IMG/VR virus record: IMGVR_UViG_3300037501_000255
Direction: 5' to 3' (one strand)
DNA from: a virus
Lineage: Duplodnaviria > Caudoviricetes
DNA: 64,000 nt
The notes under the pieces: generated by a model
Databases searched by the model: none
What the model saw: only the letters and a program-made list of their open reading frames with translations
What the model was told of the DNA's origin: nothing
Position numbers and translations under genes: made by a program
Shown: positions 2,149 to 59,386 of the stretch, piece by piece
Position numbering within the stretch: the stretch's first letter is position 1
How the letters are laid out: each line of letters opens with the position of its first letter

Positions 2149-3360
2149 CTACTTAACCTTTGCTTGTGAAATGAGAAAATCTATCGCTCTGTTTCTCTCA
2201 TGGAAAGACATCAAAAGTTCATACTGGCCGGAATTTCTTAGATGTGTCAAAACCTCGTCCGGCGTTCTTCCAACCTTCTGCGCCTCGGCCTCTACTACGC
2301 CGAACGCCTCGTCTGCGGACATGTGAATATTTTCGCGCTCACGATAAATGGCATCAAGGAATATATTAGACAGTATATTTCTACGCGCCTGCTGTTTGAG
2401 TTGCTGTACGAGCTGCTCCGAGTCTTTAGGAAGCGCTTTTAAACCAATGCGCCTGCAGATCACCTCAGTCTCGGCATCTATCCAGCGGTCCGGAATCTCC
2501 AGAGGGTTAGCCTCGATTAGCTGTGTTAGAACTTCATTATAAAGCTTGGCCTTTAGCGGTACGGAATGATCATTGGTTTTCTTAGAGATTAAATCTCTCT
2601 TCATATCCTCCAACGAAGAGAATAGAGCTGATTTAGCAAATTCGTCATCTAGTGCTGGTAATGCTCGTGCGAATACGGCGGATAAGCGAACCCGAATAAC
2701 CCTACCATCCTTAAGCGCTGCGTCAAACTCATCACCTGCTTTCTTATCAAGAAAGACAGTATTGTCAACAAACGTGTCCGGTGTATCTGATAATGCTACT
2801 GAGGCGTGACTATTGCTGCCATCGAGGAATTCAACGGAAACCTGATCGCTCGCCTCAGCAGGCCTTTCTACAAAATCAAGCTGCGCCATAGAAGCGCGTA
2901 TCTTCTCAAGATCAGCCGCCACCAGACTGTCTAGTGTTGGCAAAGCCTCTGAAATGTGCAGTTCGGGCGGGATCACCACCTGTAACTCGGGCTCAAAATC
3001 AGCAATTACTGCGAACTCAAAGGAGCCATCGAGATTAAACTCTCCGACATATTTTTTTCTACGCGAAGCCCTATGAGCCTCAATGAGACTTGGCGAGCCG
3101 ACTATTTTAAGTTGTTTCTCGCGAATTGATCCCGAGACCTCTTCATGAACAATTCTCGCGGAGCACTCTGCTAAAATAATATCCTTGAATTGATTACGAA
3201 TTACTGCCGGCGGGGCAGTGCCCTTCCTAAAACCCCTTGCCTCAACACGCGGGGCGATTTCTTTAATGAAGGAGTTGATTGATTCGTCTACTTGAGATTG
3301 TGTAACCGAGAAAAACAGTTGCTTCTCTATGCCACTCTTATCTTCTATCCTTACTAACAT
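2149..3360 (-). CDS. tig: trigger factor (ribosome-associated chaperone) with degenerate PPIase domain
   Basis: Ribosome-binding motif GFRKGTAP, LPALDDEFAK and a C-terminal helical domain; start moved to ATG 3360, which has AGGAG upstream. Confidence 0.9.
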   Translation of the reverse strand: MLVRIEDKSGIEKQLFFSVTQSQVDESINSFIKEIAPRVEARGFRKGTAPPAVIRNQFKDIILAECSARIVHEEVSGSIREKQLKIVGSPSLIEAHRASRRKKYVGEFNLDGSFEFAVIADFEPELQVVIPPELHISEALPTLDSLVAADLEKIRASMAQLDFVERPAEASDQVSVEFLDGSNSHASVALSDTPDTFVDNTVFLDKKAGDEFDAALKDGRVIRVRLSAVFARALPALDDEFAKSALFSSLEDMKRDLISKKTNDHSVPLKAKLYNEVLTQLIEANPLEIPDRWIDAETEVICRRIGLKALPKDSEQLVQQLKQQARRNILSNIFLDAIYRERENIHMSADEAFGVVEAEAQKVGRTPDEVLTHLRNSGQYELLMSFHERNRAIDFLISQAKVK

Positions 3361-3367
3361 ATATTGT

Positions 3368-6300
3368 CTATCTCCTATATTGGTTTGGATCAGTAAGTAG
3401 CTGTGACTGCTCCTGCTTAATTGCTGACTCCCAACGTTCGGCCTGTTCATCAAACATTGTATCTATATCCTTAACCTCCTCTCTCTTGGCCCGCTCAGAG
3501 GGCGGTCGTGTATTGCGTACTCGATATTTATCCAATTCGAGAAGAAGATTACTGAAGTCATCGCCTGCCGATAGGCGACGATTTAGGTCCATCAGAAGCA
3601 ATTGCAGATGCTGTGGACTGACTGCGTCACCTAGATCCTTTACATTTACAAGGCTATCGAGCGCCATAGACACCCTGCGTACAGTATCGGCCTTATCCTT
3701 GTACTGAGGTGACTGGGACATTCGACTAATAAAGTCCCGTACCTTATCTCGCGATACGGTCAGCGACTCTTTGATATAATCAAACTCTTCTTCTGCACCG
3801 GCCGCCTCGCGCTCTGCCATGTCTTTTGCTTTATTGATAGCCTTAAGTAGTTGCGAGCGATACACTTTTGATGTGGAAAGTAGGTCGCGTAGTTGATTAA
3901 GTAATACGGGATTTCTCCCAGCTGCAGACATCTCTTTTGAGAGGGATGCTTGTGCCTGAACTACAGCCTGCAGGTACTTCATTAGTTCTTCGGCCTTGCT
4001 ATTGAGGCGCGCAACGCCATCTTGCTGTTGGGGCACAAGCCTGTCTGCCAGCTTGCCGCCAGAGAAAATAGTTTTCGATAGGGATGTAATGAGCGCCTCA
4101 CCCTCCTCCTGTTTTGGGGCGGGCAATGCAGGGTCTTTGCCAGTATTCTGCTCTCTACGTATCGTGCTTCTTAGGGCTGGGGCAACTTTGCCCAAAATCA
4201 TCTCTACAGTTGTTCCGATACTTTTATCTGTAAGATACGATGGTGGTAGTTTCTGTAGTTCCTTCTCCACTTTCTGCAGAGTATCTGTTGGCACACCGCT
4301 TTTAGCCAAGTCATCCAAAATGCTCTTGATAATCGGATTTTCATCTGACTTATCGGTGATCTCGCTGCTACGTTCAGCATCAAGCTTCACAGAGGAGAAA
4401 TCAACCTCGACTTGTGGCGGAATGTAGGTTGTAGATACGAATGGACTCTGTTTGAATGGCACGTCGCCGCCCTTCGTATAGGGCACTATATCCTTTTCAT
4501 AGGCGGGAGAGATGGATAGCACTTCCTTCCTGCGGTCAAGCATGGCCATGCGTATAGCGCCTACAGGATTTCCTAACAGGTTGTTCCCTAGACGCCTGAC
4601 GGTATTTACTAGCGAGCTGTATACAGACGGCTCTACTATTTCGCCTTTACCCTCGGCCAATCGCTGGGCATTTAGCTTGTCTATTTGCTCACGAGAGAGT
4701 CTTTCCCCCGGCTGTATATTTAATCGAGTTTTACGCACAATGCCCGACGCGTGCGATGTCGTGTCTGGGACGGGATCGGCAAAGGCTTTTGTAATCTGAG
4801 CTAATTCCTCCCAGGACCTTGGTCTGGGGTTTGCTGGATCCGACCAATTTTCGTCAGTTACCGAAGCGTCAGACTTATTCTTCTCAAAAAACTCACGTAC
4901 GGCTGATAGAGCTGGGGCGGCGCGCGCGGCGCGAAATCCATAATCAGCACCTATAATCATTGCTCCAAGAGAATTATTTAGTAATCTAGAGGCATCCTCG
5001 CCCTTTCCCTGTTTATCTGCAAAAGCGCGGTATAGCTGACTGAGCTTGCCGTATATGGTGTTTGACGCCAGCACTGCACCGCCACGACCGCCCTTTAGAG
5101 ACATGAAGTCGGTATTTATGAATCTCTCAATCTCCTCTCTGCGCTCAGAAGTTTTAGCGGAGAGCTTCTTAGATAACACTTCCGTTACATATTCTTCAAT
5201 TATACCTGGAAGCACCTTGTTGCATACGTAGACCGATACGTGCTCCCATGTCACATCCCTCGTGACCCCCTGCTTTTGTAATTCATAATATTTTGACATG
5301 ATATCTGCCAGTATTTTATTTATTAGGTCGCCAGTGCGGCGACCTGCATCCTGCCCCGCCCCACTGTATGTCAGGGCTATATCGGCCTGCTTAGCTTTTA
5401 TACCGGTGTCATCGATACCCAGATATTTCAATAGTGGTTCAAGCTTGGATGCGGCAACCCCGGAGCCAAGGCTCTCGTCCCGCAACTTAGAGATGGCGTC
5501 AGTATTGATTACGCTGCTTTTATAGTCCTCTTCATTGGCAGCATAGCGCTCAGCGAATGCTTGCGACGACAGTGCTGCAGATAGGTGGGGGAGGAACCCG
5601 TCCGTAAGGGTGCCAAGCTTATCGTTTATGCTTTTTATTTCTTTTTCTGAGGTAAGGGGCTGTGATGCTGCATCTACAAGTTTAATTGCCGACGGCGCAT
5701 TGTACACGTAGCGCATTGTGAGCGGGAGGAGGGGCATAGCATATAGTTTGAATATATTTGAAAGAATTAATTGAAGCGAAGTTTTGTCAGCAAACAGAGG
5801 GCCGTACTTGTTGAGTATCTGCGTGCGCGCTGCCTCAAAAGCATACATCATCTCTTCATTGAATGCCCGAATATTGTCCAGGTCCTTGGTCTTAAACGAT
5901 GTACCGGCTATGTCCCCACCGGGCGTGCCAGAACCATATGTGCGCTTCGCTTCATTCGAGGCCTCTAAGAATTGATTGCTTTCTGAAGTTATTGCTTTAT
6001 TTACCTCGCCCTTGGCGGCTACTATGAATTCGTCCAAAATGTCGGTCGCTACGGCAGCGTTTGGCTTACTCATCAGTTTTGCAATGGCTTGGGTCAACTG
6101 TGCCGAGGACTGTGCCTGCATATGTGCGCGTGCACTCTCCATCGACTCCATAGCTCCATCAATAACTTCGAAAGCCACATCTGCATATGTTCTATTACTT
6201 AGAAATTTCGTACGAATATCGCCCATGTTAAGATTGGTCGACGCCACGCTATACTTCTCACCATTCCACATGGTCATATTCAAATCTAGGCTAGCTAATT

Positions 6301-7270
6301 TCTGCTCTTTAGACAATAGGTTTGTGATGCTACGCACACCCTTAACATCAGTAATATTTGGGTTTATATATATATTTGGTGTTAAAACCTCACCGGAGTT
6401 GGATATAACGCGCGTGTTTACATCCGCTATATTTGCCCAGCAGTAATCATGTAGGGCCTTTTGTAGCTCCTTATAGTGTCGCATGTAAGCTGCAGAGAGG
6501 ACGGCGAGCTGAGCTGGTAGATTTGCTAGGCTTTTCTGGTGCCCTGGCGGAGGTCCGGCCGGAAACATAACCTCAAAATCCATGCTACCCTGCATAAAGT
6601 CAGCAAGTACGGCCTGATTATATTCAATGAGATATTTGCCGTGCGCGATGCGCATGGCTTCAATCAAATCATTGAGGCGGGGAGATCTGTACTGAAAGCC
6701 CTTCTTGGGCGCGGCGCTTTTGACTAGATTATTTGGAAGAACTGTGAGGATTGGATTATTTATTATCTGCTGTTTGATAACGCTAATGAAGGCCATCCCC
6801 AATGCGAATGATAAGGCATTCCTGAGCGATTCATTATTATAAGATAATTCTCTAACAATAGACCTAATCTCCTCTGTGGGGTACTTTGAATCTAGAAGGT
6901 GTTGACGCAGCGCTACCAGGCTATCTTTATCGAAAGGTAGGACTTCCGGAATAAAGCCTGTAAGATGATTTGTGGGCAGTGCGCCGCGCAAAACGGGCAA
7001 TTCCGGCCGCACATCTTTAAGATGCGCAAGTAAGAATTGGGCAACCTTCTTGTTTAAGAGTTTTTGAAATGGATCCTCGACCTCGCCGCCAGATTTCGTA
7101 ATATTCTCAAAAGCAGCAAACAGATCTTCTACCGTAGCAGGGATGAGCTTGAACTGAGGGCGGGTTGGCGCCCTGGCATCAGCAGCTAGTGCTTTAAGAG
7201 CGTACCTTATATCGCCCGTTGCTTCAAATTTATCTGTATTCTTTTGAGATAGTATTTTCCAAAGAGTCAT
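3368..7270 (-). CDS. large hypothetical protein, 1300 aa (possible virion/internal protein)
   Basis: Long uninterrupted ORF, largely helical composition, no motif recognised. Confidence 0.85.
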   Translation of the reverse strand: MTLWKILSQKNTDKFEATGDIRYALKALAADARAPTRPQFKLIPATVEDLFAAFENITKSGGEVEDPFQKLLNKKVAQFLLAHLKDVRPELPVLRGALPTNHLTGFIPEVLPFDKDSLVALRQHLLDSKYPTEEIRSIVRELSYNNESLRNALSFALGMAFISVIKQQIINNPILTVLPNNLVKSAAPKKGFQYRSPRLNDLIEAMRIAHGKYLIEYNQAVLADFMQGSMDFEVMFPAGPPPGHQKSLANLPAQLAVLSAAYMRHYKELQKALHDYCWANIADVNTRVISNSGEVLTPNIYINPNITDVKGVRSITNLLSKEQKLASLDLNMTMWNGEKYSVASTNLNMGDIRTKFLSNRTYADVAFEVIDGAMESMESARAHMQAQSSAQLTQAIAKLMSKPNAAVATDILDEFIVAAKGEVNKAITSESNQFLEASNEAKRTYGSGTPGGDIAGTSFKTKDLDNIRAFNEEMMYAFEAARTQILNKYGPLFADKTSLQLILSNIFKLYAMPLLPLTMRYVYNAPSAIKLVDAASQPLTSEKEIKSINDKLGTLTDGFLPHLSAALSSQAFAERYAANEEDYKSSVINTDAISKLRDESLGSGVAASKLEPLLKYLGIDDTGIKAKQADIALTYSGAGQDAGRRTGDLINKILADIMSKYYELQKQGVTRDVTWEHVSVYVCNKVLPGIIEEYVTEVLSKKLSAKTSERREEIERFINTDFMSLKGGRGGAVLASNTIYGKLSQLYRAFADKQGKGEDASRLLNNSLGAMIIGADYGFRAARAAPALSAVREFFEKNKSDASVTDENWSDPANPRPRSWEELAQITKAFADPVPDTTSHASGIVRKTRLNIQPGERLSREQIDKLNAQRLAEGKGEIVEPSVYSSLVNTVRRLGNNLLGNPVGAIRMAMLDRRKEVLSISPAYEKDIVPYTKGGDVPFKQSPFVSTTYIPPQVEVDFSSVKLDAERSSEITDKSDENPIIKSILDDLAKSGVPTDTLQKVEKELQKLPPSYLTDKSIGTTVEMILGKVAPALRSTIRREQNTGKDPALPAPKQEEGEALITSLSKTIFSGGKLADRLVPQQQDGVARLNSKAEELMKYLQAVVQAQASLSKEMSAAGRNPVLLNQLRDLLSTSKVYRSQLLKAINKAKDMAEREAAGAEEEFDYIKESLTVSRDKVRDFISRMSQSPQYKDKADTVRRVSMALDSLVNVKDLGDAVSPQHLQLLLMDLNRRLSAGDDFSNLLLELDKYRVRNTRPPSERAKREEVKDIDTMFDEQAERWESAIKQEQSQLLTDPNQYRR

Positions 7271-8088
7271 TTATCCTTTCCTAAGGCTTCCAAAAGAGCT
7301 TTATTCTTAGACAGTGCCTGCAGTCGTGCTTTAATTGCCGATGTGGAAATGCCTATTTCTTCTGAAATTTCGAATAAAGTTCTGCCCTCCAAGAAAAGGT
7401 TAACTATTTTTTTGGTAGAGGGTTCAAGCCCATCAATTACGCTATTTATTGATAGGTTACTGACCACATCATGTTCTGAGTCCGAAGCTCTAAAGCCCAG
7501 TATCAGAACATCTTCGGGAGAGGTGCATTCTCGAATTGTAGTGTGCCCTCCATCTTTGAGTGGAATTTCTTCATCAGCGGAAAGCAGCGCCATGGGAATG
7601 GGATATGTGCGCCATTTACCTTCAGCAGTGCTTGTTCGGCAGTAGGTGCAGTATTTGGGCATCCCCCTGGTTTCATCAAAAACAAATGTCTGATCGCAGT
7701 GTGGGCATCGAGTTTTACAGAAGCGGTAGGTGCCATGAGTGGCCGTCCGACACTTCTCTGTGGCATACTTATATAGATTGACCATGCGATTCTTTACATG
7801 ATTCTGTAAAAATGTCAGCATATTAGCTGACTTCTCTATCGAATAATCTGGAATTGCGGCTAACGCAATGACGGTGAGTTCCTGAACTAAATCATCAATA
7901 CCGTATGATGGGATGGACATCTGACGCGCCTGATATCTGATAAAATCAGATATATATCGGTAGACCTGGTCTATCCCAACTCCCGTACGACTATCTATAT
8001 ATAGAACAACACCACTCTTCATGGGAATGTGGCCCGCAATCCACCTTCGACCACCGTCGGTGCCATATCTAATCTCGTATTGAGTCAT
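7267..8088 (-). CDS. sigma70/ECF-like sigma factor with Zn-ribbon insertion
   Basis: Region-2-like IDDLVQE...TFLQNHVKNRMVNLYK and region-4 HTH GRTLFEISEEIGISTSAIKARL, with CPHC-x15-CTYC between them; start at 8088 overlaps the upstream stop (ATGA). Confidence 0.8.
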   Translation of the reverse strand: MTQYEIRYGTDGGRRWIAGHIPMKSGVVLYIDSRTGVGIDQVYRYISDFIRYQARQMSIPSYGIDDLVQELTVIALAAIPDYSIEKSANMLTFLQNHVKNRMVNLYKYATEKCRTATHGTYRFCKTRCPHCDQTFVFDETRGMPKYCTYCRTSTAEGKWRTYPIPMALLSADEEIPLKDGGHTTIRECTSPEDVLILGFRASDSEHDVVSNLSINSVIDGLEPSTKKIVNLFLEGRTLFEISEEIGISTSAIKARLQALSKNKALLEALGKDK

Positions 8089-9974
8089 TCTACCACCTCC
8101 GACGTGCCCCTCCATTCATCAACACCATCAGTTTTAGTAGCTGGGCATGCAGCTTGGAAGTCGCAGAAAGAACAAAGCCTTGACGGGCGCGGTTCCCAGC
8201 TCTGATCCGAACGTATCATGCCTGCTACCTTGGTAATTTCGGCAACACACCGTTCGGTATCCGTCTTTGAGATCGAGTACGGGATTGTCTTAGAGGCCTC
8301 GCCGAGTACGATGTACGAGCCCTTGATACGTTTGATGTCGGGATTCTCGTGCCACATTGCTAGTGCGTATACGAGCAGCTGAAATTCGTCAAGGTACTTA
8401 CTTTTTCCGGTGTTGTGCGTGACGACCATGCCGTCGCCGCACAGGTACAGCGAATCTGCTGCTTCTACGGCGATGCATTGCGTGGGAACGCTCGGCGTCG
8501 GTATGATGTTCGTAATGACCCTGCGCTTTGCTGCACAATCATGCCTATGTGATGTTTGCAGAAAAGCATCTACCTGAGCTGCTTTGCGCGGCAATTTGAA
8601 TGGATTAATACCAACCGGTCGAAATTCGAGCCTATGCGACTTATTTCCCAGCTTATCTATAGCGTGAAAGTATTGTACAGTAATTCCAAAGGTGCGGATG
8701 AGTTCGCGGACATCGCGCGTTAAGGCCTCACTCGTGGAGATAAATACTGCGCGTTTTCTCTGCGGATTCCACGAGCCATTGGAATCCATAATGCCTCTCA
8801 GCAACTCAAGGCGTTGAATGTGGGATGCCCTCAAATACTGAGATGGTATATGCTTATTATTAAGCAATCCCACCTTCCGTAAAATACCGGACAGCGGTAT
8901 ATTCCACCTGTATACTCCAACATTGCCATTGTTTCGGCATTGACGACAATACCGCCGGCCGTGGTAGGTGGCGAATTCGCTGTGCCCATAGCCGCATCGA
9001 TTCCGATCCCTTTTAATGCACGTGACAGCATACGCGGTCCTTTCCTTCCTTATAGAAATTTCACCCCAACGGCTCTCTAGCATATCTGTCATCGCCTGTA
9101 AGTCTTGGGTGCCGACAGTGATTTGACCACTGCGAGATGAGCCGTCACCCAGCCACACGCCCAATATCCATGGATCTACTGGAAGACTGATCTCTGGTAG
9201 CTCTAAAGAGGCGCTGTTTTGTACAACAAACCGCCCAGACACAGATTGTGTAAATCTTTGATAGAGCTCATCTGCATCTATTACTTCATCGTAGTTTCCT
9301 GCGGAACCATTTGTCCTAAAGCCGACTTGCCACAGATGGACATTGTCACATACTACGCTTGTATGATCTGAAAACTCAATCCTGTAACACGGTCTGTTGT
9401 GGATTTGTGACTTTACGCTCACCCTAGTCGGCCTACCGTCGCTTCCAAATACCATATCACCTACCGTAAGCTCACCCATTGTGGACCAGCCTGTCGGGGT
9501 AGGGATTCTGGTATCCATAGCAAGTCCCTTGTAGTCTACAATCTCGACGCCGCTGTCTGTTTGGTCTACTCTATCTATGAACCCCCGCAGGACGATATTC
9601 CCTGCCAACTCTATAGTAAATTCCTTCTCATTGAAAAGGACCTTGGGCAGACCCTCGCTGCGTAGCTTGGCTAGGTATGTGTCTAACATGCTCTTGGCGG
9701 TGCCGCGCTGCTCTTTGGTCAGAGCATGTGAGGACAGTGTCTTGCGACAGATATCTTTAAGGAGCGAACCCCATTCCTCTGGTGGAGTTGGAGTGTCGCG
9801 CAAAGTATTGTGAAATGACTCAAGCACATCGTGAACGAAGTTTCCTAGCTCTATGTGAGGCCACTTTTTCTTGGGGAGCTTCTGTATGTACGTGAAGTAA
9901 TACTTTCTCGGACACTGGGTATATGTCTTGATGGCCGAGGCCGATATCTTCAACTTATCACTTTTAATTACCAT
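8085..9974 (-). CDS. PD-(D/E)xK exonuclease of Cas4/AddB/RecB-like type, intein-containing
   Basis: SASAIKTYTQCPRKY, GNFVHDVLE, RGFIDRVD, IVDYK|TGK, QLLVYA and CSFCDFQAACP (four-Cys Fe-S pattern); start at ATG 9974. Confidence 0.9.
   Translation of the reverse strand: MVIKSDKLKISASAIKTYTQCPRKYYFTYIQKLPKKKWPHIELGNFVHDVLESFHNTLRDTPTPPEEWGSLLKDICRKTLSSHALTKEQRGTAKSMLDTYLAKLRSEGLPKVLFNEKEFTIELAGNIVLRGFIDRVDQTDSGVEIVDYKGLAMDTRIPTPTGWSTMGELTVGDMVFGSDGRPTRVSVKSQIHNRPCYRIEFSDHTSVVCDNVHLWQVGFRTNGSAGNYDEVIDADELYQRFTQSVSGRFVVQNSASLELPEISLPVDPWILGVWLGDGSSRSGQITVGTQDLQAMTDMLESRWGEISIRKERTAYAVTCIKRDRNRCGYGHSEFATYHGRRYCRQCRNNGNVGVYRWNIPLSGILRKVGLLNNKHIPSQYLRASHIQRLELLRGIMDSNGSWNPQRKRAVFISTSEALTRDVRELIRTFGITVQYFHAIDKLGNKSHRLEFRPVGINPFKLPRKAAQVDAFLQTSHRHDCAAKRRVITNIIPTPSVPTQCIAVEAADSLYLCGDGMVVTHNTGKSKYLDEFQLLVYALAMWHENPDIKRIKGSYIVLGEASKTIPYSISKTDTERCVAEITKVAGMIRSDQSWEPRPSRLCSFCDFQAACPATKTDGVDEWRGTSEVVE
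8412..9527 (-). mobile_element. class 3 intein (372 aa) with LAGLIDADG homing endonuclease
   Basis: Begins with Gly (GLAMDTRIPTPTGW) and ends THN before Thr. W-C-T signature: block B DNVHLW, block F TQCIAV, block G VVTHN. Endonuclease blocks ILGVWLGDG and LRGIMDSNG. Confidence 0.92.
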
Positions 9975-9981
9975 GCCTACC

Positions 9982-10872
9982 TTAACTTTGGTGCCTACCG
10001 TATGTGAACCACTTAAACACATGCGGATTGCTATAGTGCGGTCGCGGCAGATTAGCTGGCGCCGGAGGGAGATCCTGAATGGATCTTACCCATCTGCTGC
10101 TATTTGAATCAAAGTACGAGAAGACAATAACGTTTTTATCCCTATCGTAGTGGTATTTTGTAGCGGAGCCGCTGAAATAGTTTGAGTTTCCTAAATTAAC
10201 ATAATCGATACCGCTCCAGGATGTGCGTGAGTTTCTGAGAGACATCAGATGGCCATTTATTATGTCAACAGCCGGCTTTTCCGGTGCAGATGCGCGGCCG
10301 TCTACCAAAAGATACATGGCGTCCGTTCGGACTTCACTCTGATTGTTGGCTGATGAAAACATGGGCGGGGAATCATCTATAATTGAACCCGTATATTTAG
10401 GAGGTTCCAGCACTACCCGAGTATCTGTGCCAACAACAGTGCCATCAGGCAGAGTTTCCGGCTGGATAATCTCGAGTTCGCTCAGAGGGATATCGATATA
10501 GAAAATCGGGTCTCCGGCAAAATCATAATACAGCGGCACGTCTGCGCCGCCGGGGTATGAATATACGATGCCTTCAAAAAACACGTATCTGGTGCGCCCC
10601 AGGTCTGTATTATCTGTTCCGTATGTCTGAGTCAACACCGCGCTTGGTACCGTTGCGTAGCCGTCAAAATAATATGCTACGGCGCTTACTGTAACCATCC
10701 CGACATTGGTTGGCATGGTTATAGCTTCTGTATATACGGCAGATAGCGGCGTGGGTAGTGTACCATCTAAGGTATAGTAGATGGTGGAAGGTAGATTTGT
10801 GAACAGCTCTACTTGCTGCGGTATACCGGAAATAATTTCTTTCTCTGATGGCGAAAGGGATAGGATAATCAT
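9982..10872 (-). CDS. protein with chitobiase/beta-hexosaminidase C-terminal-like (Fn3-associated) domain; possibly structural
   Basis: Motif TIYYTLDGTLPTPLSAVYTEAITM. Confidence 0.7.
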   Translation of the reverse strand: MIILSLSPSEKEIISGIPQQVELFTNLPSTIYYTLDGTLPTPLSAVYTEAITMPTNVGMVTVSAVAYYFDGYATVPSAVLTQTYGTDNTDLGRTRYVFFEGIVYSYPGGADVPLYYDFAGDPIFYIDIPLSELEIIQPETLPDGTVVGTDTRVVLEPPKYTGSIIDDSPPMFSSANNQSEVRTDAMYLLVDGRASAPEKPAVDIINGHLMSLRNSRTSWSGIDYVNLGNSNYFSGSATKYHYDRDKNVIVFSYFDSNSSRWVRSIQDLPPAPANLPRPHYSNPHVFKWFTYGRHQS

Positions 10873-18411: not shown

Positions 18412-18416
18412 CGCTA

Positions 18417-21156: not shown

Positions 21157-22263
21157 TTAAGTCGCGCCCACAACCCCTTTAATGATTTCAGCAGCATCTA
21201 TAATCTCCTGCCATGTTGTTTTTGGGCTAATCGAAACCCTTATTGAGCCAGAGAGACGTGGCGACAATTCCCCATACATAGCTGCCAGAGTATAGCTGTG
21301 CGTCGACATACCTGATTCACAGGCGCTCATGCCAGATACCATCACGCCAGCCACTGATAGCTGTTCTACAAATAATTGTACATCCTTAACTTTTGGAAAA
21401 TATAGATTTGTAGTATTGGGCAGTCTCTTGGCTCCAGCCCCATTTACCAGAGCAACATCTCCCAATATTCGCTCAAGCTCTGCAATTTGCAATTGCATTT
21501 GCGCCGAAATGTGCGGAGATAAATTACTCATCTCTGTCACTGCCAATCCAAGACTGTATATAGCTTCGGTATTTATCGTGCCAGGTCGCAAACCCCACTG
21601 CTGCGCCCCTCCCAACATTAGCGGATAAAGTTGAGGAAAGATATTGTCCTTGAAGGCCAGTGCGCCAACACCCTTCATGGCGTGCATTTTATGACCAGAA
21701 ATAACAATTGTACTAGCGCAATTCCGCTGTATTTCAGATAGGCTCCCGCCTTTTGCATAGCATTGCGATGCGTCAATGTGAAGCTTTATTCCTTTCGCCC
21801 GGCAAAGCTCGGCAATGGAACAGTCCGGATCAAGATGAATTCCGGTTTCATTATTGGCATACATACAGGCCAGTACAATATTGGGGGCGTGCTTGCATCC
21901 GGATATTTTTTTAGCCAGCGTATCGTAGCATAGGTAACCTTCCGGAGTCACCGGCAGGATCTCATCCGCGTATTTAAGGACTGACTTGTGCTCGACTGCT
22001 GAAGACCAGATGGTGTGCCCTGACTTTCTGTATGAGGACAGCGCCATGGCATTTGCTTCTGTAGCGCCGCTCGTAAACAATACATTGTTTGTTCTGGTAC
22101 CCAGAAGTGTCGCAACAATCTCGCGGCTCCCATCAATAATCTTCTTAGAAGCGGCGCCTGCCGCATGTTGCGAGTCGGCATTTCCTAGAAATATTTCATC
22201 GGATAGCTGCTCGTATACATGCGGCAGGACATATGTGGCCGAATTATGATCTAAGTATATCAT
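21157..22263 (-). CDS. iscS: cysteine desulfurase (IscS/NifS)
   Basis: IYLDHNSAT, FTSGATEAN, PLP lysine in SGHK, catalytic Cys in SACESG. Confidence 0.95.
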   Translation of the reverse strand: MIYLDHNSATYVLPHVYEQLSDEIFLGNADSQHAAGAASKKIIDGSREIVATLLGTRTNNVLFTSGATEANAMALSSYRKSGHTIWSSAVEHKSVLKYADEILPVTPEGYLCYDTLAKKISGCKHAPNIVLACMYANNETGIHLDPDCSIAELCRAKGIKLHIDASQCYAKGGSLSEIQRNCASTIVISGHKMHAMKGVGALAFKDNIFPQLYPLMLGGAQQWGLRPGTINTEAIYSLGLAVTEMSNLSPHISAQMQLQIAELERILGDVALVNGAGAKRLPNTTNLYFPKVKDVQLFVEQLSVAGVMVSGMSACESGMSTHSYTLAAMYGELSPRLSGSIRVSISPKTTWQEIIDAAEIIKGVVGAT

Positions 22264-23913: not shown

Positions 23914-24345
23914 TTATATGTCGTTAAGTTTCTTGCCTAATTTTGACAGGTATTTGTTATAAAGCCCCTCGTATATGTGCTGATACGGCGACGCTAGTAT
24001 TTGTACATCGTCTTCCGCAGTAAGCGTAGATCCAACCCGCATACGAATTTTTGCACTATCCTCTTCACGCGAAAGAAGCATTTCAATAGATGAAAGTCCG
24101 TGATGGCGTTGCGCGTATGCGGCTAAACCATCTAATGTATCTTGGGAAAACTCCAGAATGGCAGGAGCATTGTCTTCATCCGAAAGAAGGACGATGGTGG
24201 CATAGTGAATCTTTTCTGCGCGATCCGGCGCAGAAACTAGACCGTCTTTGCTAGCTGGAATTGCTATAGGAGGAAATGGGAATTTAACCCCATGAACCCG
24301 CTCAGATGTCAGTAGTTGATTTAGGATCCGAATCTTCATTCTCAT
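23914..24345 (-). CDS. hypothetical protein in the groES position
   Basis: 143-aa ORF directly upstream of groEL; only weak GroES-like segments. Confidence 0.7.
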   Translation of the reverse strand: MRMKIRILNQLLTSERVHGVKFPFPPIAIPASKDGLVSAPDRAEKIHYATIVLLSDEDNAPAILEFSQDTLDGLAAYAQRHHGLSSIEMLLSREEDSAKIRMRVGSTLTAEDDVQILASPYQHIYEGLYNKYLSKLGKKLNDI

Positions 24346-24568
24346 TTACCTGCGGTTCTGCTGATGCTGTGGGGAAGTCTTGCACATCGTCATATATACC
24401 CACCTCGCGCGTCGAACCTTTGAGATGCGGCGGTGCTTCGACTGATTTGAGTATATTAAATACAGATGAGAATGTGATATTGTTTCTGTGTTCGGCGGGG
24501 ACTGATTTCTTAGCCTTTTTTAGATGCCGCCTTACGCGATCTCGTAACATTTTTCTATTTCCAGACAT
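24302..24568 (-). CDS. hypothetical protein
   Basis: Start at 24568 overlaps the def stop (TAATG); basic N-terminus, acidic tail. Confidence 0.7.
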   Translation of the reverse strand: MSGNRKMLRDRVRRHLKKAKKSVPAEHRNNITFSSVFNILKSVEAPPHLKGSTREVGIYDDVQDFPTASAEPQVNENEDSDPKSTTDI

Positions 24569-25083
24569 TAGAAGATCCTCATATGTTTGCGAAGCTCTGC
24601 CTTGCAGCACTTGGCAAAAGTGAGATTTGAGCTGCACAGGCATAGCCCGTCATCTTTTATGTTGGACAGCTGATTTCTAAACATACTCTGACCAATTGTA
24701 TGCTGATGCTCGTGCTGCGCGACGATGGCGGGAAGGCCGGTAAGCCTTATACCTTGAGGATTCAAGTCGTCTACTATAACTGCAGTATTGTATCTTAGGG
24801 TGCGTATGGACTGACCGGGATACGACAGACACCCCTCTGCAGTAAAGATAAGCGGCTCAGACAGGTGGGTGATGCGCGCATTTATGAAGTTATAACTGTG
24901 CTTTGCAGAAATGCGTATTATGAATGCTTGCTTTACTACACCAATCTGGCATGCTGCCAGACCAATTCCCTGTACCTCCGACATTCGAAGCTCATTTTCG
25001 AGCCTAGTCAGAAGTTCAGCGGCTTCCCCCGGCAAGACCGGAGTGGACGGAATTAGGAGAGTATCCTCATCGGTAACGATCAT
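24568..25083 (-). CDS. def: peptide deformylase with C-terminal SEC-C-like motif
   Basis: GIGLAACQIG, EGCLS, QHEHQH and C-terminal DGLCLCSSNLTFAKCC; start at 25083 (ATGA overlap). Confidence 0.9.
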   Translation of the reverse strand: MIVTDEDTLLIPSTPVLPGEAAELLTRLENELRMSEVQGIGLAACQIGVVKQAFIIRISAKHSYNFINARITHLSEPLIFTAEGCLSYPGQSIRTLRYNTAVIVDDLNPQGIRLTGLPAIVAQHEHQHTIGQSMFRNQLSNIKDDGLCLCSSNLTFAKCCKAELRKHMRIF

Positions 25084-25812: not shown

Positions 25813-25813
25813 A

Positions 25814-48028: not shown

Positions 48029-48891
48029 TTAGGTAGACGCAGTGCGAGCCCCAGCTTGGACCACGATTCCAACGAGGACTTCGTCAGCGGCCTTTGCGAG
48101 AACTTATTTTTGATTGAAAATTCAACCATGTATGTGGATATGGGATTTCCGCTTAGCAGATCATACACGAAGTTGAGTGCAAAAGTGGCCGCATTAAGGT
48201 TGACGAATCCGAATTGATTTGAGGACTCTGCCATCTCAGCACAACTGAGTTCGCTAGCCAGCTTATCTGTCTTAGCTCGCTCGACTAGCTCGGGGAATAC
48301 TTCGAACAGATGCGGGGTGCGATACACCCCGGTGCTGGGCTCCATTGCTGATGTTATGCAGGTGAGGAGCACCTGGCCGGCCACATCTTCATTGCCACAG
48401 TCAATGATATAACCGCCATTTGGGTAATATAGCTGAAGGGCCTCGACCATAAACTTCCGGGCTTTGATATTGTCAACGCACGAAATGATGAGTGGCGTAG
48501 AATTACCATAGTTTATGTTGTTGACCTGCGCATTGCGGAGGGCTGTTTTGATAGAGTTTGCGGATTCTAGATACTGCGGCAGGAATTGTATCTGCGTACC
48601 AAATGCAGTTGAATATCTCCTGGCCAGAGCCTCAGCCTTGTTTTTACCAACATCAGACTTGATAAAGTTCTGGCGTATAAGATTCTTTGGCTCTACCGTA
48701 TCTGCATCTGCAAGTGTCAAACAGACTGGCTGCCTGCTGTTAAGCAGCAAACGAACTAGATTTGGGATGACGTAACTGCCCGTGCCTCCGCAGCCTATAA
48801 CTAGTACATTTTGTATATTTGTCAGCGGCTTGAGCGGATACAGGGGTTCGATCGTGAGTGTTTTTGTCTGTGCCATGCTACATTGCCTCAC
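48025..48891 (-). CDS. E1-like ThiF/MoeB family enzyme (PRTRC ThiF-like)
   Basis: IGCGGTGS, DADTVEPKNLIRQNF, KAEALA, SCVDN, DCGN and candidate catalytic Cys in LSCAE. Confidence 0.93.
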   Translation of the reverse strand: MRQCSMAQTKTLTIEPLYPLKPLTNIQNVLVIGCGGTGSYVIPNLVRLLLNSRQPVCLTLADADTVEPKNLIRQNFIKSDVGKNKAEALARRYSTAFGTQIQFLPQYLESANSIKTALRNAQVNNINYGNSTPLIISCVDNIKARKFMVEALQLYYPNGGYIIDCGNEDVAGQVLLTCITSAMEPSTGVYRTPHLFEVFPELVERAKTDKLASELSCAEMAESSNQFGFVNLNAATFALNFVYDLLSGNPISTYMVEFSIKNKFSQRPLTKSSLESWSKLGLALRLPK

Positions 48892-50048: not shown

Positions 50049-50051
50049 TCG

Positions 50052-50771
50052 TCACTCTCCGTGCTTGAATATGGTTTTGATTGCTGTATCAAAATTCTTA
50101 TATTCTCGACTGTGAGGAAGCAGCCACTCGGTGTCGAATGGGTGCTCAGTCAGATATTTGAGATAGCTCTGAGCTACTGACTCGTTATCTCTACTCACCT
50201 GCGCCCATGGGAACTTTGAGTTTAGGCACGAGGTCTGGAATAGGTCATCATTGAATGGGGCCGTGAAGAATCTCCGCACCGCGCCATTTAGTGCAGCTAA
50301 CGATTTAAAGTTCTTGATCGCCTCTTCGTTTTGCCCCCAGCAAATTCTAGCATCTGGGAATACATTTGGTGTAGGGTAACTGTACAGCCCATCAATACCA
50401 AGCATAATGTTATTCTGCTTCATTGCAAAGATGTATGAATTGCTCACGAAATAGTGATCATTCGCCTTTGTGAGGATGAAGAGGAATAGAGCCGGAGGCA
50501 GGTTGGCTTTGCCCACGGCGTCAGCGGCGCGACCGCGCGAAGAGAATGATACATCATACGTGCTGGCTGGGCGCTCTACCGCTATGTGCGTCTGATCTCC
50601 TTTGACGCCAAGGTATCGCGTGCCGATGGGCAGGAATCCAATGTCAAATGCGACATTGGTGGACAGCACCTTGACTAGATCGGTCAGGTCTATTCCCTTG
50701 ACCTGCTTGTTGCCAGTAGGATCTGTGTACGTGAGGGTCGTTCCCGATTCAACAATATTTACGTCTAACAT
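50052..50771 (-). CDS. prokaryotic E2-like protein (PRTRC protein B / E2 family D-like)
   Basis: LPPALF...LYSYPTPNVFPDARICWG with the expected Cys, FFTAPFN; lies between Ubl and JAB genes. Confidence 0.85.
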   Translation of the reverse strand: MLDVNIVESGTTLTYTDPTGNKQVKGIDLTDLVKVLSTNVAFDIGFLPIGTRYLGVKGDQTHIAVERPASTYDVSFSSRGRAADAVGKANLPPALFLFILTKANDHYFVSNSYIFAMKQNNIMLGIDGLYSYPTPNVFPDARICWGQNEEAIKNFKSLAALNGAVRRFFTAPFNDDLFQTSCLNSKFPWAQVSRDNESVAQSYLKYLTEHPFDTEWLLPHSREYKNFDTAIKTIFKHGE

Positions 50772-57089: not shown

Positions 57090-58424
57090 TCAACCGAACA
57101 CCCTCTTGCCGGCAACTACTATGGCTACCAAGACAAATAGTGCTGCAGCCCACATTAGCGAGTATCCTGCACCGCCTGATGATGCCTCCTGTACAGCCGC
57201 ACCTACATTGAGGATGCCGGCTCCGTATTTGAATTCATCTCCAGCATCAGTGGCAGTAGAAGTCATAAGCTTCATAACTTCCGCGCGATCCACACCTGGA
57301 CCAAGAATTGAAACCAGTAGTGCTGCTGAGCCTGCAGCCATAGGCGTCGCCATCGAAGTTCCTTGATAAGGAAACATCCCCCACTCAGATGGATTTTCTG
57401 GATTGACCGTAGACTGCCACACTCCGCCCTCTGGGCCAAAATCTCGCATATTACCGCCGGGTGCTGCAAGGAAAACTCCTCGTTCGTCGTCAGGGTCTCT
57501 ACCGTGTGAAGAATACGGCGCTAGTTTGCCATCGGGCCCAACTGAGGATATGGCTAGGCAGCCCTCCATGCCTGCTGGGTATTCGATAACTCCCCTACCT
57601 GCATTACCTGCGGCGCAAAACACCAGAACATTTTTCTCAACGGCATATGTCAATGCATCCTGCATGACTTGACTAAAGCCACCTCCGCCCAGAGACATGT
57701 TGATTACATGCGCTCCATTATCTGCAGCAAATCTAATGCCTTCGGCAATATCTGCAGTATCGCCCCAACCCTGATCAGACAGCACTTTAACTGGCATGAT
57801 GCATGCGTTGAACGCAATCCCTACGCCGCCAAGGGTGTTGTTTGTGCTCTCTGCGATTGTTGAAGCTACGTGGGTGCCGTGACTCTGGATATCATATGGG
57901 TCTGTGGTGTCTGCCGCGAAGTCATAGCCGGCAACGAAACAGGTGTCCTTTAGATCTGGTATCTGGGGGTATTTGCTATCCGGCCCGGATACGCCAGTGT
58001 CCAAGACAGCGACTACTGCGCCTGTGCCAGTAGTCTTTCGCCATGCAAGGGGCAGTCCAATCATATCGAAATGCCACGCTTGCTTTGCGAGAAATGGATC
58101 ATTAGGCACATCAAAATCGGCGCCGTCGGAAAGGGCGCGATAGACTTGTGAAACTTCAACACTCTGAATGTCGGAATCTCCCCTAATTTCCTCTATAATT
58201 TCTGCCACTTTTGAAGAATCAACCACGGCGGTGGTGATCTTCGTTGATGGGAACATAAGCGAGTTAGGGAGTAGATCTGTGTCAATCTCCTCCTCTGTCT
58301 CTGCGATATCGACTCTGGTGGCGTCATCTTTGAAGTCTACAATGAGCTTGACTGGCGCGGCACTTGCTGCGCTTGCCATGGTTAAAAGAGTAGCGCATAC
58401 CAGTGCGTGGATTATTTTATTCAT
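57090..58424 (-). CDS. exported S8 subtilisin-like serine protease with C-terminal membrane anchor
   Basis: Triad motifs VAVLDTG, HGTHVA and GTSMATP; signal peptide from ATG 58424 (GAGG upstream); C-terminal TM segment plus KR. Confidence 0.95.
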   Translation of the reverse strand: MNKIIHALVCATLLTMASAASAAPVKLIVDFKDDATRVDIAETEEEIDTDLLPNSLMFPSTKITTAVVDSSKVAEIIEEIRGDSDIQSVEVSQVYRALSDGADFDVPNDPFLAKQAWHFDMIGLPLAWRKTTGTGAVVAVLDTGVSGPDSKYPQIPDLKDTCFVAGYDFAADTTDPYDIQSHGTHVASTIAESTNNTLGGVGIAFNACIMPVKVLSDQGWGDTADIAEGIRFAADNGAHVINMSLGGGGFSQVMQDALTYAVEKNVLVFCAAGNAGRGVIEYPAGMEGCLAISSVGPDGKLAPYSSHGRDPDDERGVFLAAPGGNMRDFGPEGGVWQSTVNPENPSEWGMFPYQGTSMATPMAAGSAALLVSILGPGVDRAEVMKLMTSTATDAGDEFKYGAGILNVGAAVQEASSGGAGYSLMWAAALFVLVAIVVAGKRVFG

Positions 58425-58434
58425 TTGCTTCACC

Positions 58435-58617
58435 TCAAACCTCCTGCTCTGGCGCATCAGGCTCAATCTCATCGGTAGTTCTGCGAAGCTTCTTGCGTGC
58501 AGAGGTTTTCGCAACGAAAAGCTCCTTGGCTCGCTTTACAGCTGTTTTACTTATATCACGTGCGATGGTGCTGACGAAGATGTCCACCACCTTTTCTGTT
58601 ATACTTTTCTTTGCCAT
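58435..58617 (-). CDS. hypothetical protein
   Basis: 60-aa ORF with GGAGG upstream. Confidence 0.65.
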   Translation of the reverse strand: MAKKSITEKVVDIFVSTIARDISKTAVKRAKELFVAKTSARKKLRRTTDEIEPDAPEQEV

Positions 58618-58621
58618 ATTA

Positions 58622-59134
58622 TCAACCCTCCGCTACCAGCTCTTGATCGACAGAGCTCTCTTGTGAAACATCATCTGCCGCACTGAGCAGTTCGCTTAGA
58701 TCTGTCTGCGACAGCATGTCGCGAAATAGCGGAACGAGTTGCACCGCCGCTTCAACCACCTGTTCACCCAGCTTCTCGCCGGAATAATTCCTCATCCAAA
58801 GTGCCAGAGCCTGTGTCTTAGCTACAGCCTCCTCTCTCGAGAGCGACACGCCCGGAGCCTTGGTGATGAGCGGGCCGCCCACCTCGAGGATTTCTGCAAG
58901 GGCATTGAGAAGTGCGAACTCCAGGAGGGATTTCACAGCCGGGTCTGCCAACTGCAATCCTGGGTGCATCTCGTGCAACTTAGGAGTGATCTTATCTGCA
59001 AGGGGGGTAACAATCTGATCTACAACACGGTCAACCGTGCTCTTGATCATACCTTGCTTCACACCTCGGGCGACCTGACTGGTACGCTTTTCCTTGACAA
59101 CTTTCACGATTTTTTCCTTAGGAATATTAGCCAT
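58622..59134 (-). CDS. hypothetical helical protein (paralogue family)
   Basis: Clearly similar to 60753-61232 (PAVKxxLEFA; LAxWMRxYxGExxGEQxVEAA). Confidence 0.85.
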   Translation of the reverse strand: MANIPKEKIVKVVKEKRTSQVARGVKQGMIKSTVDRVVDQIVTPLADKITPKLHEMHPGLQLADPAVKSLLEFALLNALAEILEVGGPLITKAPGVSLSREEAVAKTQALALWMRNYSGEKLGEQVVEAAVQLVPLFRDMLSQTDLSELLSAADDVSQESSVDQELVAEG

Positions 59135-59161
59135 TACAGACTCCTGGAGTTAAAGATTGAG

Positions 59162-59386
59162 CTATTTGACCCTGTAAACAATTCTACCACGATTCAAATC
59201 GTATGGCGAGACTTCGATATGGACCCTGTCGCCTGGAACAATTTTAATTGAGTTCAGTCGCATTTTTCCTGATGGAGTACAGGTCACCACATGTGACCCA
59301 TTTTTAGTCTCTACTTCTACTCTAAACATATCCTTGCAGAAGTCTAGAACAATACCTTCGAACTCAATTTTATCTGAATCAGCCAC
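59162..59386 (-). CDS. infA: translation initiation factor IF-1
   Basis: [41 protein letters not shown]; GTG start with GAGG upstream. Confidence 0.95.

Follow-up and report, generated by a model that had tools for sequence, protein, structure and literature searches.

Genes at the locus

The 64,000-nt window, that is the whole stretch of DNA analysed, belongs to an IMG/VR virus record with an estimated completeness of 38%, whose parent contig measures 367,953 bp. Six genes encoding IF-1, bS21, peptide deformylase, trigger factor, GroEL and ClpP are located on its minus strand (Table 1), all intact-looking and with their functional motifs kept. These identities, first proposed in an initial annotation from the sequence alone, were upheld by profile matches. 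The six loci were likewise correct; however, the starts of tig and def had been placed too far upstream, as orthologues set them at 3360 (ORF open to 3453) and 25083 (M30; ORF open to 25170), respectively.

Table 1. Features of the window
Feature	Coordinates	Strand	Profile match or remark
Trigger factor, phage-type, 403 aa	2149..3360	-	Trigger_N + Trigger_C
Giant protein, 1300 aa (context, not toolkit)	3368..7270	-	Always directly 5' of tig
ClpP-family serine protease, 195 aa	17744..18331	-	PF00574, 159.4 bits
bS21, 134 aa	18417..18821	-	PF01165 + TIGR00030 above cut-offs (TIGR00030 38.6 vs 28.95)
Cysteine desulfurase-like (IscS/NifS class V aminotransferase)	21157..22263	-	PF00266, 127.6 bits
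GroEL chaperonin, 545 aa	22260..23897	-	TIGR02348, 658.1 vs 582.1
Conserved 143-aa ORF	23914..24345	-	Directly 5' of GroEL
Peptide deformylase, 171 aa, C-terminal SEC-C-like cysteine motif	24568..25083	-	PF01327
Two IscA/HesB-like Fe-S assembly genes	25080-25403 + 25459-25857	-	PF01521
Ubl operon (E1, JAB, E2)	48025-50771
IF-1, 74 aa, GTG start	59162..59386	-	TIGR00008, 82.9 vs 61.15

The contig carries a portal gene (phrog_16240 match, 5.6e-45) adjoining a large terminase with an intein, has a coding share of 91%, and holds nearly every gene on the same strand. Because of the portal, the intein-bearing terminase, the near-unidirectional genes, the virus record and the length of the parent, the contig is a huge uncultured tailed phage of ~368 kb and not cellular DNA, the outcome that the initial annotation had named as fatal to its proposal. 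An origin from a cell, for example a CPR bacterium or a symbiont with a small genome, or from chimeric assembly, with ordinary housekeeping genes, would fit the cell-like gene set, and one-strand orientation is possible in small genomes. Such an origin is highly improbable, as portal and terminase are on the contig, and neither ribosomal-protein operons nor the elongation factors EF-Tu and EF-G were found in the 142 kb (~38% of the genome) covered by our searches for partners and factors. Furthermore, the gene block described below is shared by independent contigs, 125-423 kb long, that come from different samples, large identity gaps separate the phage from the cellular versions, and a cellular IF-1 used as control has quite a different context.

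A conserved gene block

Five of the six genes are found within 23 kb, with S21 and ClpP 85 bp apart, in the order IscA - def - GroEL - IscS - GMP reductase - NUDIX - bS21 - ClpP - primase, continuing with SbcDC - sigma-like - giant ORF - tig - Pol III alpha - DnaJ - RecA. The block is a conserved replication or early-type backbone in which each gene has a fixed slot. DnaJ, just past the window edge, has an HPD motif and four zinc-finger repeats; IF-1 and IF-3, the latter also just past the edge, occupy a second conserved neighbourhood. The genes had been described as dispersed and outside their normal bacterial operons. The latter holds, as the cellular IF-1 control sits in SecY-Adk-Map-InfA-L36-S13 instead, but dispersal describes the genes only in part, as all have fixed slots and five lie within 23 kb.

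In the relative G001, tig, clpP, S21, groEL and def are collinear (identity 58-85%), and contigs of 229, 423 and 163 kb retain def-GroEL-IscS-GMP reductase-NUDIX-S21(-ClpP). The IscS-like gene directly 3' of GroEL has the equal slot in L028, L029 and L030, which also carry an Fe-S_biosyn gene 5' of def, where the IscA/HesB-like pair is located here. The analysis directly establishes what the genes encode, that their motifs are intact, that they are of phage origin, and that they are conserved and syntenic across the clade; this conservation argues for selection. The 423-kb relative keeps the block but has no ClpP in the corresponding slot.

Deformylase and trigger factor

The deformylase matches PF01327 (67.3 bits vs 22.8) and scores 71 against the NCBIfam equivalog, below its cut-off of 103.95, with the catalytic motifs GIGLAACQ, EGCLS and HEHQH intact. 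Its nearest solved relatives are the phage deformylases of Vibrio phage Vp16 (5mtc) and cyanophage S-SSM7 (3uwa), which have all three motifs in common with it. Their chains of 137 and 154 residues end soon after HExxH, whereas the deformylase described here and its clade continue into a tail of ~40 more residues, which closes with a SEC-C-type C-x-C...C-C motif. Among orthologues the tail pattern C-x-C-x-S...C-C is invariant and its four cysteines are conserved, although in this phage it gives no Pfam SEC-C match at E 0.01. Pep_deformylase plus SEC-C occurs in 12 of 30 atlas matches, those listed being 93-100% viral, and this architecture appears to be almost only viral.

The metal-binding domain at the C-terminus of SecA interacts with SecB and, close to uL23, with the ribosome (Jamshad 2019, PMC6620043; bioRxiv 10.1101/613315). 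Both SecA and the phage deformylase carry a short C-terminal Cys-rich motif, putatively metal-binding here, but it is fused to a translocation ATPase in the former and to a deformylase in the latter, and the phage copy is degenerate.

The trigger factor matches Trigger_N (61.3 bits) and Trigger_C (55.1 bits) but stays below the NCBIfam equivalog threshold (TIGR00115, 153.3 vs 180.2). Its AF2 model (pLDDT 89.6) aligns over the full length with T. maritima and E. coli trigger factors (E 1e-18 to 1e-19), and its N-domain matches the ribosome-binding domain with a TM-score of 0.82. Bacterial Tig (TIGR00115; E. coli 1w26/2vrh, T. maritima 3gty) shares the three-part architecture, the fold and GFRxGxxP. 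Nothing else in the phage family is conserved as well as this ribosome-docking loop, and the GFRKGTAP signature at residues 43-50 has G43 and R45 invariant. In contrast, deletions have shortened the isomerase head domain of the phage protein, which yields no match to Pfam FKBP_C. Phage trigger factors group in a single clade (support 0.999) that is restricted to phages and spans at least 37 clusters, and that of this phage is at most 26% identical to the listed named or FKBP-bearing, apparently cellular, trigger factors.

Bacterial tig is found in a tig-clpP-clpX cluster, while phage tig adjoins Pol III alpha and stays between this gene and the giant ORF down to 24% identity. The 1300-aa giant protein has no match in Pfam, PHROG or the atlas; an ORF of 1219-2121 aa occupies the same slot in L015, L016, L017, L031 and L034, always directly 5' of tig with a gap of 2-70 bp. 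This invariable coupling could indicate a dedicated rather than a general role for the trigger factor.

bS21 and initiation factors

bS21 is located next to the anti-Shine-Dalgarno region. In the phage protein, residues 46-104 are the core, aligning to solved bS21, flanked by basic arms of 45 aa at the N-terminus and 30 aa at the C-terminus, both genuine: the full ORF is 73% conserved in G001, and an N-terminal M-x-K-F is invariant clade-wide. IF-1 aligns over its full length to solved bacterial IF-1 and belongs to a phage-specific group (67-99% identity), cellular IF-1 being at most 62% identical. IF-3, which scores above its cut-off, is also a phage-specific version.

GroEL and ClpP

GroEL has DGTTT at residue 87 and a Met/Gly-rich C-terminal tail. 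Its identity is 85% to the G001 protein and 57-61% to those of distant relatives, and plateaus at 52-54% against many phyla. Phage-collection records with a GroEL homologue number 234, none more than 51% identical; as in chaperonins of Vibrio, Flavobacterium, Pseudomonas and other phages, the protein is full-length, but it differs from these in that no GroES or gp31-like partner was recognisable in the 142 kb searched. The 143-aa ORF directly upstream (AF2 pLDDT 86), kept in G001, L028, L029 and L030, is not recognisable as a co-chaperonin: it gave no GroES/gp31 match and only weak OB-fold/SSB-like rows (E >=0.07); it has no match in Pfam or PHROG.

Cellular ClpP meets its unfoldase through the N-terminal region. 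In the phage ClpP this region is divergent, with an acidic N-terminus, and the C-tail is polybasic, while the triad S90, H113 and D162 is invariant among orthologues. The protein scores 155.8 bits on true ClpP models, below the NCBIfam equivalog cut-offs. Neither GroEL nor ClpP is a ribosome-associated protein, and DnaK, GroES and a ClpX/ClpA-type unfoldase are absent from the 142 kb searched (~38% of the genome).

Proposed role during infection

Probably, each protein acts alone with host ribosomes and host partners, and together they would sustain a high protein output during production of the hundreds of phage proteins. The six genes would most likely be long-resident, phage-lineage versions of bacterial genes, long residence being suggested by the trigger factor clade, the GroEL plateau and the distance to cellular IF-1. 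IF-1, IF-3 and the armed bS21 may act at 30S initiation. Formyl groups would be trimmed by the deformylase, with the SEC-C-type zinc tail as a possible docking device replacing the usual ribosome-binding helix. The trigger factor is predicted to dock on uL23 through its GFRxGxxP loop and hold nascent chains while having hardly any isomerase activity, or none; released chains would be folded by DnaJ and GroEL, and ClpP may degrade proteins through a host unfoldase. Each of these steps, together with ribosome binding, expression timing and the benefit to the phage, is an inference. A role of this general kind has been proposed for IF-1, S21 and deformylase (PMC7162821), and likewise for chaperones together with Clp protease (PMC9723584). 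Re-equipment of host ribosomes from end to end, as first suggested, is not supported, as IF-2, EF-Tu, EF-G, release factors and methionine aminopeptidase (Map) were not found in the 142 kb searched (~38% of the genome).

Counting against independent action with host partners are the scores of trigger factor, deformylase and ClpP under equivalog cut-offs, the divergent ClpP N-terminal region, the absence of ClpP from its position in the 423-kb relative, the deformylase tail falling short of Pfam SEC-C at E 0.01, the constant coupling of tig to the giant ORF, and the obligate partners DnaK, GroES and a ClpX/ClpA-type unfoldase, not found in the 142 kb.

Chaperones and protease may instead mainly serve virion assembly and not the ribosome, with GroEL, DnaJ and trigger factor folding capsid, tail and giant proteins, the trigger factor dedicated to the giant ORF, and ClpP acting as a head-maturation or scaffold-removing protease. 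The constant tig-giant ORF pairing suggests this, as does the best structural match, the T. maritima trigger factor, whose structures were determined as those of an assembly chaperone (3gty/3gu0 titles). ClpP, whose divergent N-terminus and polybasic tail would fit, also matches a ClpP-related head-maturation model (79.7 bits), and of the 900 phages of Chen 2022 (PMC9723584), 310 have bS21 beside a prohead protease and ~50 each have it beside Clp proteases. We nevertheless regard this as rather unlikely: the docking loop that phage trigger factors conserve best would be superfluous in a free assembly chaperone, and with true ClpP models ClpP reaches double the score, falling short of the head-maturation cut-off of 120. 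It is also located ~41 kb from portal and terminase, amid replication genes, and an essential maturation protease would hardly be expected to be absent from the 423-kb relative, as ClpP is. For GroEL, DnaJ and trigger factor, virion assembly and support of host ribosomes are mutually compatible.

Phage factors could also displace host trigger factor, SecA/SRP, deformylase, bS21 and initiation factors, so that ribosomes favour phage mRNAs and host secretion and folding are shut down, with the Ubl operon supplying degradation tags. The clade-conserved basic arms of bS21, for which RNA binding has been proposed in such proteins (Al-Shayeb 2020, PMC7162821), are consistent with this, as are the kept docking loop and reduced head of the trigger factor, the SecA-type deformylase tail, whose cellular counterpart binds near uL23, and phage-specific versions of both IF-1 and IF-3. 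We consider it improbable, since no selectivity is seen, the upstream regions of phage genes carrying ordinary GGAG-type Shine-Dalgarno sequences, and tags would be unreadable by ClpP without an unfoldase. The Ubl operon had been put forward as a tagging arm, but nothing ties it physically or genomically to ClpP, ~30 kb away, or to the ribosome, and its link to proteostasis is pure conjecture.

Relation to known phage systems

Redirection of translation and proteostasis by huge phages has already been proposed in general terms in the literature. From such phages, IF-1, terminal-armed bS21, deformylase, chaperonins and Clp protease have been published (Al-Shayeb 2020; Chen 2022), as the initial annotation noted for bS21 and initiation factors in large phages (PMC7162821). 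Less known are the phage-only trigger factor clade and the SEC-C-tailed deformylase, neither of which is known to have been treated in published text. Chen 2022 (ISME Commun, PMC9723584) described bS21-encoding freshwater phages and suggested control of the proteostasis network, with no mention of trigger factor, deformylase or initiation factors. In those phages bS21 is on the opposite strand in a TerL-portal-protease-MCP module, with late transcription, whereas here it is co-directional in the replication module, ~41 kb from the portal.

The supplementary tables of Al-Shayeb 2020 (PMC7162821) include GroL, DnaK and ClpA; neither the fixed syntenic block nor the deformylase SEC-C tail is described there. 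Trigger factor is absent from the main text, but among the first 200 files of the supplement, most of them annotated phage genomes, ~13 carry "Trigger factor" as an automatic label (PMC7162821). In one phage of that study, GWD1_PHAGE_CIR_38_79, tig adjoins a split dnaE, like here, but its product retains an FPxxY-type isomerase motif and lacks the GFRxGxxP loop, opposite to the trigger factor described here.

The phage and its conserved gene block

The assembly is a single linear virus record of 142,142 bp (C1), on which the window occupies C1:65127-129126. The contig has no terminal repeats, is 91% coding and carries almost all genes on the same strand, the window itself consisting of closely packed minus-strand genes. 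A portal protein (phrog_16240, E 5.6e-45), closest among cultured phages to that of Bacillus phage G (32% identity), and a large terminase ATPase with an intein are encoded on the same contig about 41 kb from clpP, and a contig of 367,953 bp carries proteins identical to the window's trigger factor (TF), GroEL and IF-1. The molecule is that of a tailed huge phage, with portal and large terminase on one molecule and a genome above 200 kb. A cellular IF-1 control sits in the context SecY-Adk-Map-InfA-L36-S13-S11-S4-RpoA, whereas neither ribosomal-protein operons nor translational GTPases were found on the contig. The phage portal and terminase, the one-strand gene order, the huge parent contig and this unlike context together make a cellular contig very improbable, and the initial annotation is not refuted on that count.

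That annotation described infA, rpsU, def, tig, groL and clpP as a dispersed toolkit for the ribosome and nascent chain. All six match their families at the positions assigned, and the observation itself is confirmed. Its interpretation stands in part: these are intact, conserved phage genes, but end-to-end coverage and a link to the ubiquitin-like (Ubl) operon find no such backing. IF-1, bS21 and GroEL pass curated equivalog thresholds; deformylase, TF and ClpP score above Pfam thresholds and below NCBIfam equivalog cut-offs, which marks them as divergent family members. We infer putative roles for all six from their sequences.

The genes are not dispersed, as five of the six lie within 23 kb inside a conserved block, among genes for replication, repair, nucleotide metabolism and Fe-S assembly. 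In a related 125-kb IMG/VR contig the order tig, clpP, S21, groEL, def is kept at 58-85% identity, a range equal to that of the backbone genes. More distant relatives (GroEL 57-61% identical), whose contigs measure 229, 423 and 163 kb and come from different samples, have the order IscA - def - two small ORFs - GroEL - IscS - GMP reductase - NUDIX - S21 - ClpP and, after ClpP and further genes, primase zinc ribbon - SbcD - SbcC; gene contexts in the 229-kb relative were pieced together from four overlapping regions. The 423-kb phage and contigs with 45%, 35%, 30% and 24% identical TFs share the arrangement giant ORF - tig - Pol III alpha. In front of it stands a sigma-like gene or, in that slot, an ORF lacking annotation, and on contigs extending far enough DnaJ (and RecA) come after it. 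ClpP is the sole variable block member: the 423-kb phage has no ClpP at this position. The six genes are thus fixed, long-resident backbone parts common to phages of 125-423 kb, and not loose recent pick-ups. Searches of IMG/VR with GroEL returned a single close viral relative, and those from TF alignments no confirmed match.

Coordinates of the translation and proteostasis genes and their conserved neighbours (C1, the 142,142-bp contig; L-numbers, regions from relatives; other coordinates, window)
Feature	Coordinates	Strand	Length (aa)	Remarks
tig (TF)	2149-3360	-	403	start corrected to 3360 by orthologues
Giant ORF	3368-7270	-		directly upstream of tig in every case; also L015:6339-9998, L031:11892-17387, L034:390-6755
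ClpP	17744-18331	-		PF00574, 159.4 bits
bS21	18417-18821	-	134	TIGR00030, 38.6 vs cut-off 28.95; PF01165, 43.1 vs 27
Cysteine desulfurase-like	21157-22263	-		flanks GroEL; arrangement kept in distant relatives
GroEL	22260-23897	-	545	TIGR02348, 658.1 vs cut-off 582.1
def	24568-25083	-	171	start corrected to 25083 by orthologues
IscA-like Fe-S assembly (two genes)	25080-25403, 25459-25857	-		flank def; arrangement kept in distant relatives
IF-1	59162-59386	-	74	TIGR00008, 82.9 bits vs cut-off 61.15
DnaJ	C1:58658-59674			canonical type-I; HPD and four CxxCxGxG repeats; outside window
IF-3	C1:130601-131116			complete; outside window; followed by a tRNA array

Delivery of metal to the metal-dependent deformylase, or to its SEC-C-type tail, by the neighbouring Fe-S genes is conceivable.

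Trigger factor

TF is the least precedented of the six genes. It scores above the Pfam thresholds for Trigger_N (61.3 bits) and Trigger_C (55.1 bits), and under the equivalog cut-off of TIGR00115 (153.3 against 180.2). Residues 43-50, GFRKGTAP, correspond to the GFRxGxxP signature of the N-terminal ribosome-binding domain, which is the most conserved element in the phage TF family: G43 and R45 never vary among 24 sequences, conservation is at least 90% at G47 and P50, and G[FY]RxGxxP is present in 142 of 153 family members. The AF2 model (pLDDT 89.6) aligns over its full length (421-441 columns) to 3gu0, 3gty, 1w26 and 2vrh, with E from 2.6e-19 to 3.2e-18; these are T. maritima and E. coli TFs and include a ribosome-bound structure. 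The protein is accordingly modelled with the three-domain fold of tail, head and arms, and its N-domain alone gives a TM-score of 0.82 against the ribosome-binding domain 1oms.

The head appears reduced. Compared with cellular TFs and with phage TFs further off, it lacks about 12 residues at each of two places, FKBP_C (PF00254) has no match in this protein, and in fold it resembles 1l1p, the PPIase domain from E. coli, only weakly (E 0.23, TM 0.44). The shortening belongs to this TF subclade; deeper members of the clade retain FKBP_C.

Among 50,697 records of a phage collection, TF finds matches only in short fragments from gut viromes and in a single Acinetobacter record, which reads like a bacterial assembly. 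Large protein collections hold relatives graded from 69% to about 25% identity, which, with nine further clusters added, fall into a single clade (support 0.999) comprising 37 or more clusters at 50% identity. PHROGs contains one TF-like family, labelled "unknown function", and a full-text literature search found no discussion of a phage trigger factor. TF is a clade-wide phage gene with its docking loop kept, labelled automatically in published genomes and, as far as that search shows, never discussed.

The giant ORF beside tig measures 1219-2121 aa across relatives, and comparison with Pfam, PHROGs and the protein atlas assigned it to no family. It may be a client or partner of TF, which would explain the fixed position of tig.

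Deformylase with a SEC-C-type tail

The deformylase scores 67.3 bits against PF01327, above the Pfam threshold, and 71 bits against TIGR00079, below the equivalog cut-off of 103.95. Tested against the patterns G-x-G-x-A-A-x-Q, E-G-C-L-S and H-E-x-x-H, its catalytic motifs GIGLAACQ, EGCLS and HEHQH are all intact and invariant among orthologues; its closest solved relatives are phage enzymes. In bacterial type 1B deformylases a C-terminal alpha-helix serves ribosome binding. The C-terminus in this clade has instead an invariant C-x-C-x-S...C-C motif, and the tails of orthologues are recognised as Pfam SEC-C, with relatives in the 423-kb (L029:8693-9238) and 163-kb (L030:8687-9238) contigs.

The protein atlas combines Pep_deformylase with SEC-C in 12 of 30 matches, and the three leading clusters, of 64-96 members apiece, show both in 72-98% of their proteins; among the matches listed, atlas rows are 93-100% viral. 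None of the deposited phage records covers the tail, and the literature yielded no relevant paper coupling deformylase with SEC-C. As judged from these sequences, there is a large, almost purely viral deformylase family in which the usual C-terminal end appears replaced by a SecA-type zinc motif. The metal-binding domain of SecA binds to SecB and, close to uL23, to the ribosome (PMC6620043; bioRxiv 10.1101/613315), an analogy which suggests that the tail could be an alternative docking device.

GroEL, IF-1 and bS21

GroEL is canonical in sequence, with the DGTTT motif (residue 87) and a C-tail rich in Met and Gly that ends in PGMMMG. No Cpn10 match at E <=1 occurs in the 142 kb (about 38% of the genome). 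A conserved 143-aa ORF upstream of GroEL was considered as a GroES/gp31 co-chaperonin and rejected, since it has no Cpn10, Pfam or PHROG match and its confident model yields no GroES/gp31-like fold, just weak OB-fold rows.

IF-1 was recognised by its equivalog score and by a complete S1-type OB domain (about 72 aa), its residues 1-74 aligning end to end with residues 1-72 of the solved IF-1 2n8n. Its neighbourhood, FtsK ... IF-1 - ORF - subtilase, is kept in a relative with IF-3 and Ro60 nearby. The protease, of subtilisin-type S8 (57090-58514), lies two genes downstream of IF-1 and in the same position in the relative (L032:8960-10297).

Residues 46-104 of bS21 align with solved bS21 chains. 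The protein is longer than solved bacterial chains (51-88 residues) by a basic N-arm of 45 aa and a basic C-arm of 30 aa, both kept in relatives, with an N-terminal M-x-K-F invariant across the clade; extensions on phage S21 were already described (PMC7162821). A GC-rich hairpin with a T-run (18394-18412) falls exactly within the 85 bp that separate the stop of bS21 from the start of ClpP and may be an attenuator. Terminator-like sites across 14-27 kb occur at chance level (14 against 11.1). Promoter-like sites in the same region also occur at chance (23 against 22.7), and neither Rfam matches nor tRNAs were found within the window.

Comparison of GroEL, IF-1 and TF, proposed for inferring the donor or host, gave no resolution. 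Cellular matches come from many phyla and reach 52-54% identity for GroEL, at most 62% for IF-1 (67-99% within a phage-specific group) and at most 26% for TF, counting named or FKBP-bearing, apparently cellular proteins.

ClpP and its possible partners

The catalytic triad S90, H113, D162 of ClpP is invariant, with scores under the cut-offs of TIGR00493 (123.5 against 308.6) and PRK00277 (155.8 against 249). The N-terminus is divergent and acidic, alignments to solved ClpP start at query residue 16-18, and no canonical N-terminal axial region is recognised in these alignments. A role as prohead protease is unlikely: the score against the head-maturation model NF045542 is 79.7, below the cut-off of 120, by scores the protein is nearer to the true ClpP models, and its gene is surrounded by genes for replication and nucleotide metabolism, some 41 kb away from portal and terminase. 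A polybasic patch, K-I-R-K-R-R-R-K, is C-terminal in three phages, and its equivalent is N-terminal in a distant fourth (L030:15838-16410); going by these sequences, the patch appears to be kept while its position moves.

No AAA_2 match for a ClpX/ClpA-type unfoldase occurs in the 142 kb, and a host unfoldase is a possible partner for ClpP. The one AAA protein nearby, the ATPase at 43492-44913, was rejected for this part, being a single classic VCP/Cdc48-type module, not ClpX/ClpA, and 25 kb off. This ATPase has a 200-aa N-domain without assignment, adjoins a Dam methylase and lies a few kb from the Ubl operon (48025-50771), after it in transcription order.

Reach of the set and comparison with published phages

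The proposal that the phage re-equips host ribosomes end to end is not supported by the part of the genome covered. The 142 kb (about 38% of the genome) encode no IF-2, EF-Tu, EF-G, release factor or methionine aminopeptidase, nor DnaK, GroES or a ClpX/ClpA-type AAA protein, and thus several members need partners supplied by the host or by another part of the genome. The Ubl operon, suggested as a tagging arm, is real (E1, JAB, E2), but nothing ties it to ClpP or ribosomes. We regard as improbable a scheme in which TF, with its docking loop kept and head reduced, and the SecA-tailed deformylase would form a lineage-specific exit-site pair on the uL23/uL29/uL22 surface and keep host TF, SecA or SRP away from it. 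Together with IF-1, IF-3 and the armed bS21, the pair would make the ribosomes of infected cells functionally specific to the phage and would stop host secretion.

The occurrence of bS21 and initiation factors in large phages, which the initial annotation took as established, is indeed published: Al-Shayeb et al. 2020 described huge phages with IF1, IF3, deformylase and N-terminally extended S21 and proposed translation redirection (PMC7162821). Chen et al. 2022 reported bS21 phages with chaperones and Clp protease, bS21 often adjoining a protease (PMC9723584). The main text of neither paper mentions trigger factor. Among the supplementary files of the former (mostly annotated phage genomes), an automatic "Trigger factor" label occurs in about 13 of the first 200. 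In one of them, GWD1_PHAGE_CIR_38_79 (PMC7162821 file 127, 128261-129544), the TF gene adjoins a split dnaE as in this phage, but its product has retained an FPxxY-type isomerase motif and lost the GFRxGxxP loop, a pattern of domain decay opposite to that of the TF described here.

As a whole, the six-gene set is mostly a further example of a published phenomenon. The additions are a fixed, deeply conserved block, a phage-only TF clade with docking loop, and a viral deformylase-SEC-C architecture. Retuning of host translation is already attributed to huge phages; to our knowledge, phage targeting of the ribosomal exit tunnel is not yet known, and the phage TF and SEC-C deformylase open concrete, cheap tests of viral action at this site.

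Other features of the genome

The order of bS21, a DnaG-type primase zinc ribbon (14668-15243) and a sigma-70-like gene (7267-8115) is that of the bacterial rpsU-dnaG-rpoD operon, with many genes inserted between; it could be a relic from one acquisition, or coincidence. The primase is apparently split, as the DnaG catalytic core and Toprim lie at C1:55743-56507, about 24 kb from the zinc ribbon. Inteins or homing endonucleases split many backbone genes, in this phage a PD-(D/E)XK nuclease (8085-10022) and the terminase (C1:41770-44682), and in the 229-kb relative (regions L015 and L028) SbcC, Pol III alpha and GMP reductase. Beside the portal, a single 433-aa protein (C1:38252-39553) joins an M23 peptidase domain to the catalytic core of a eukaryotic-type topoisomerase IB.
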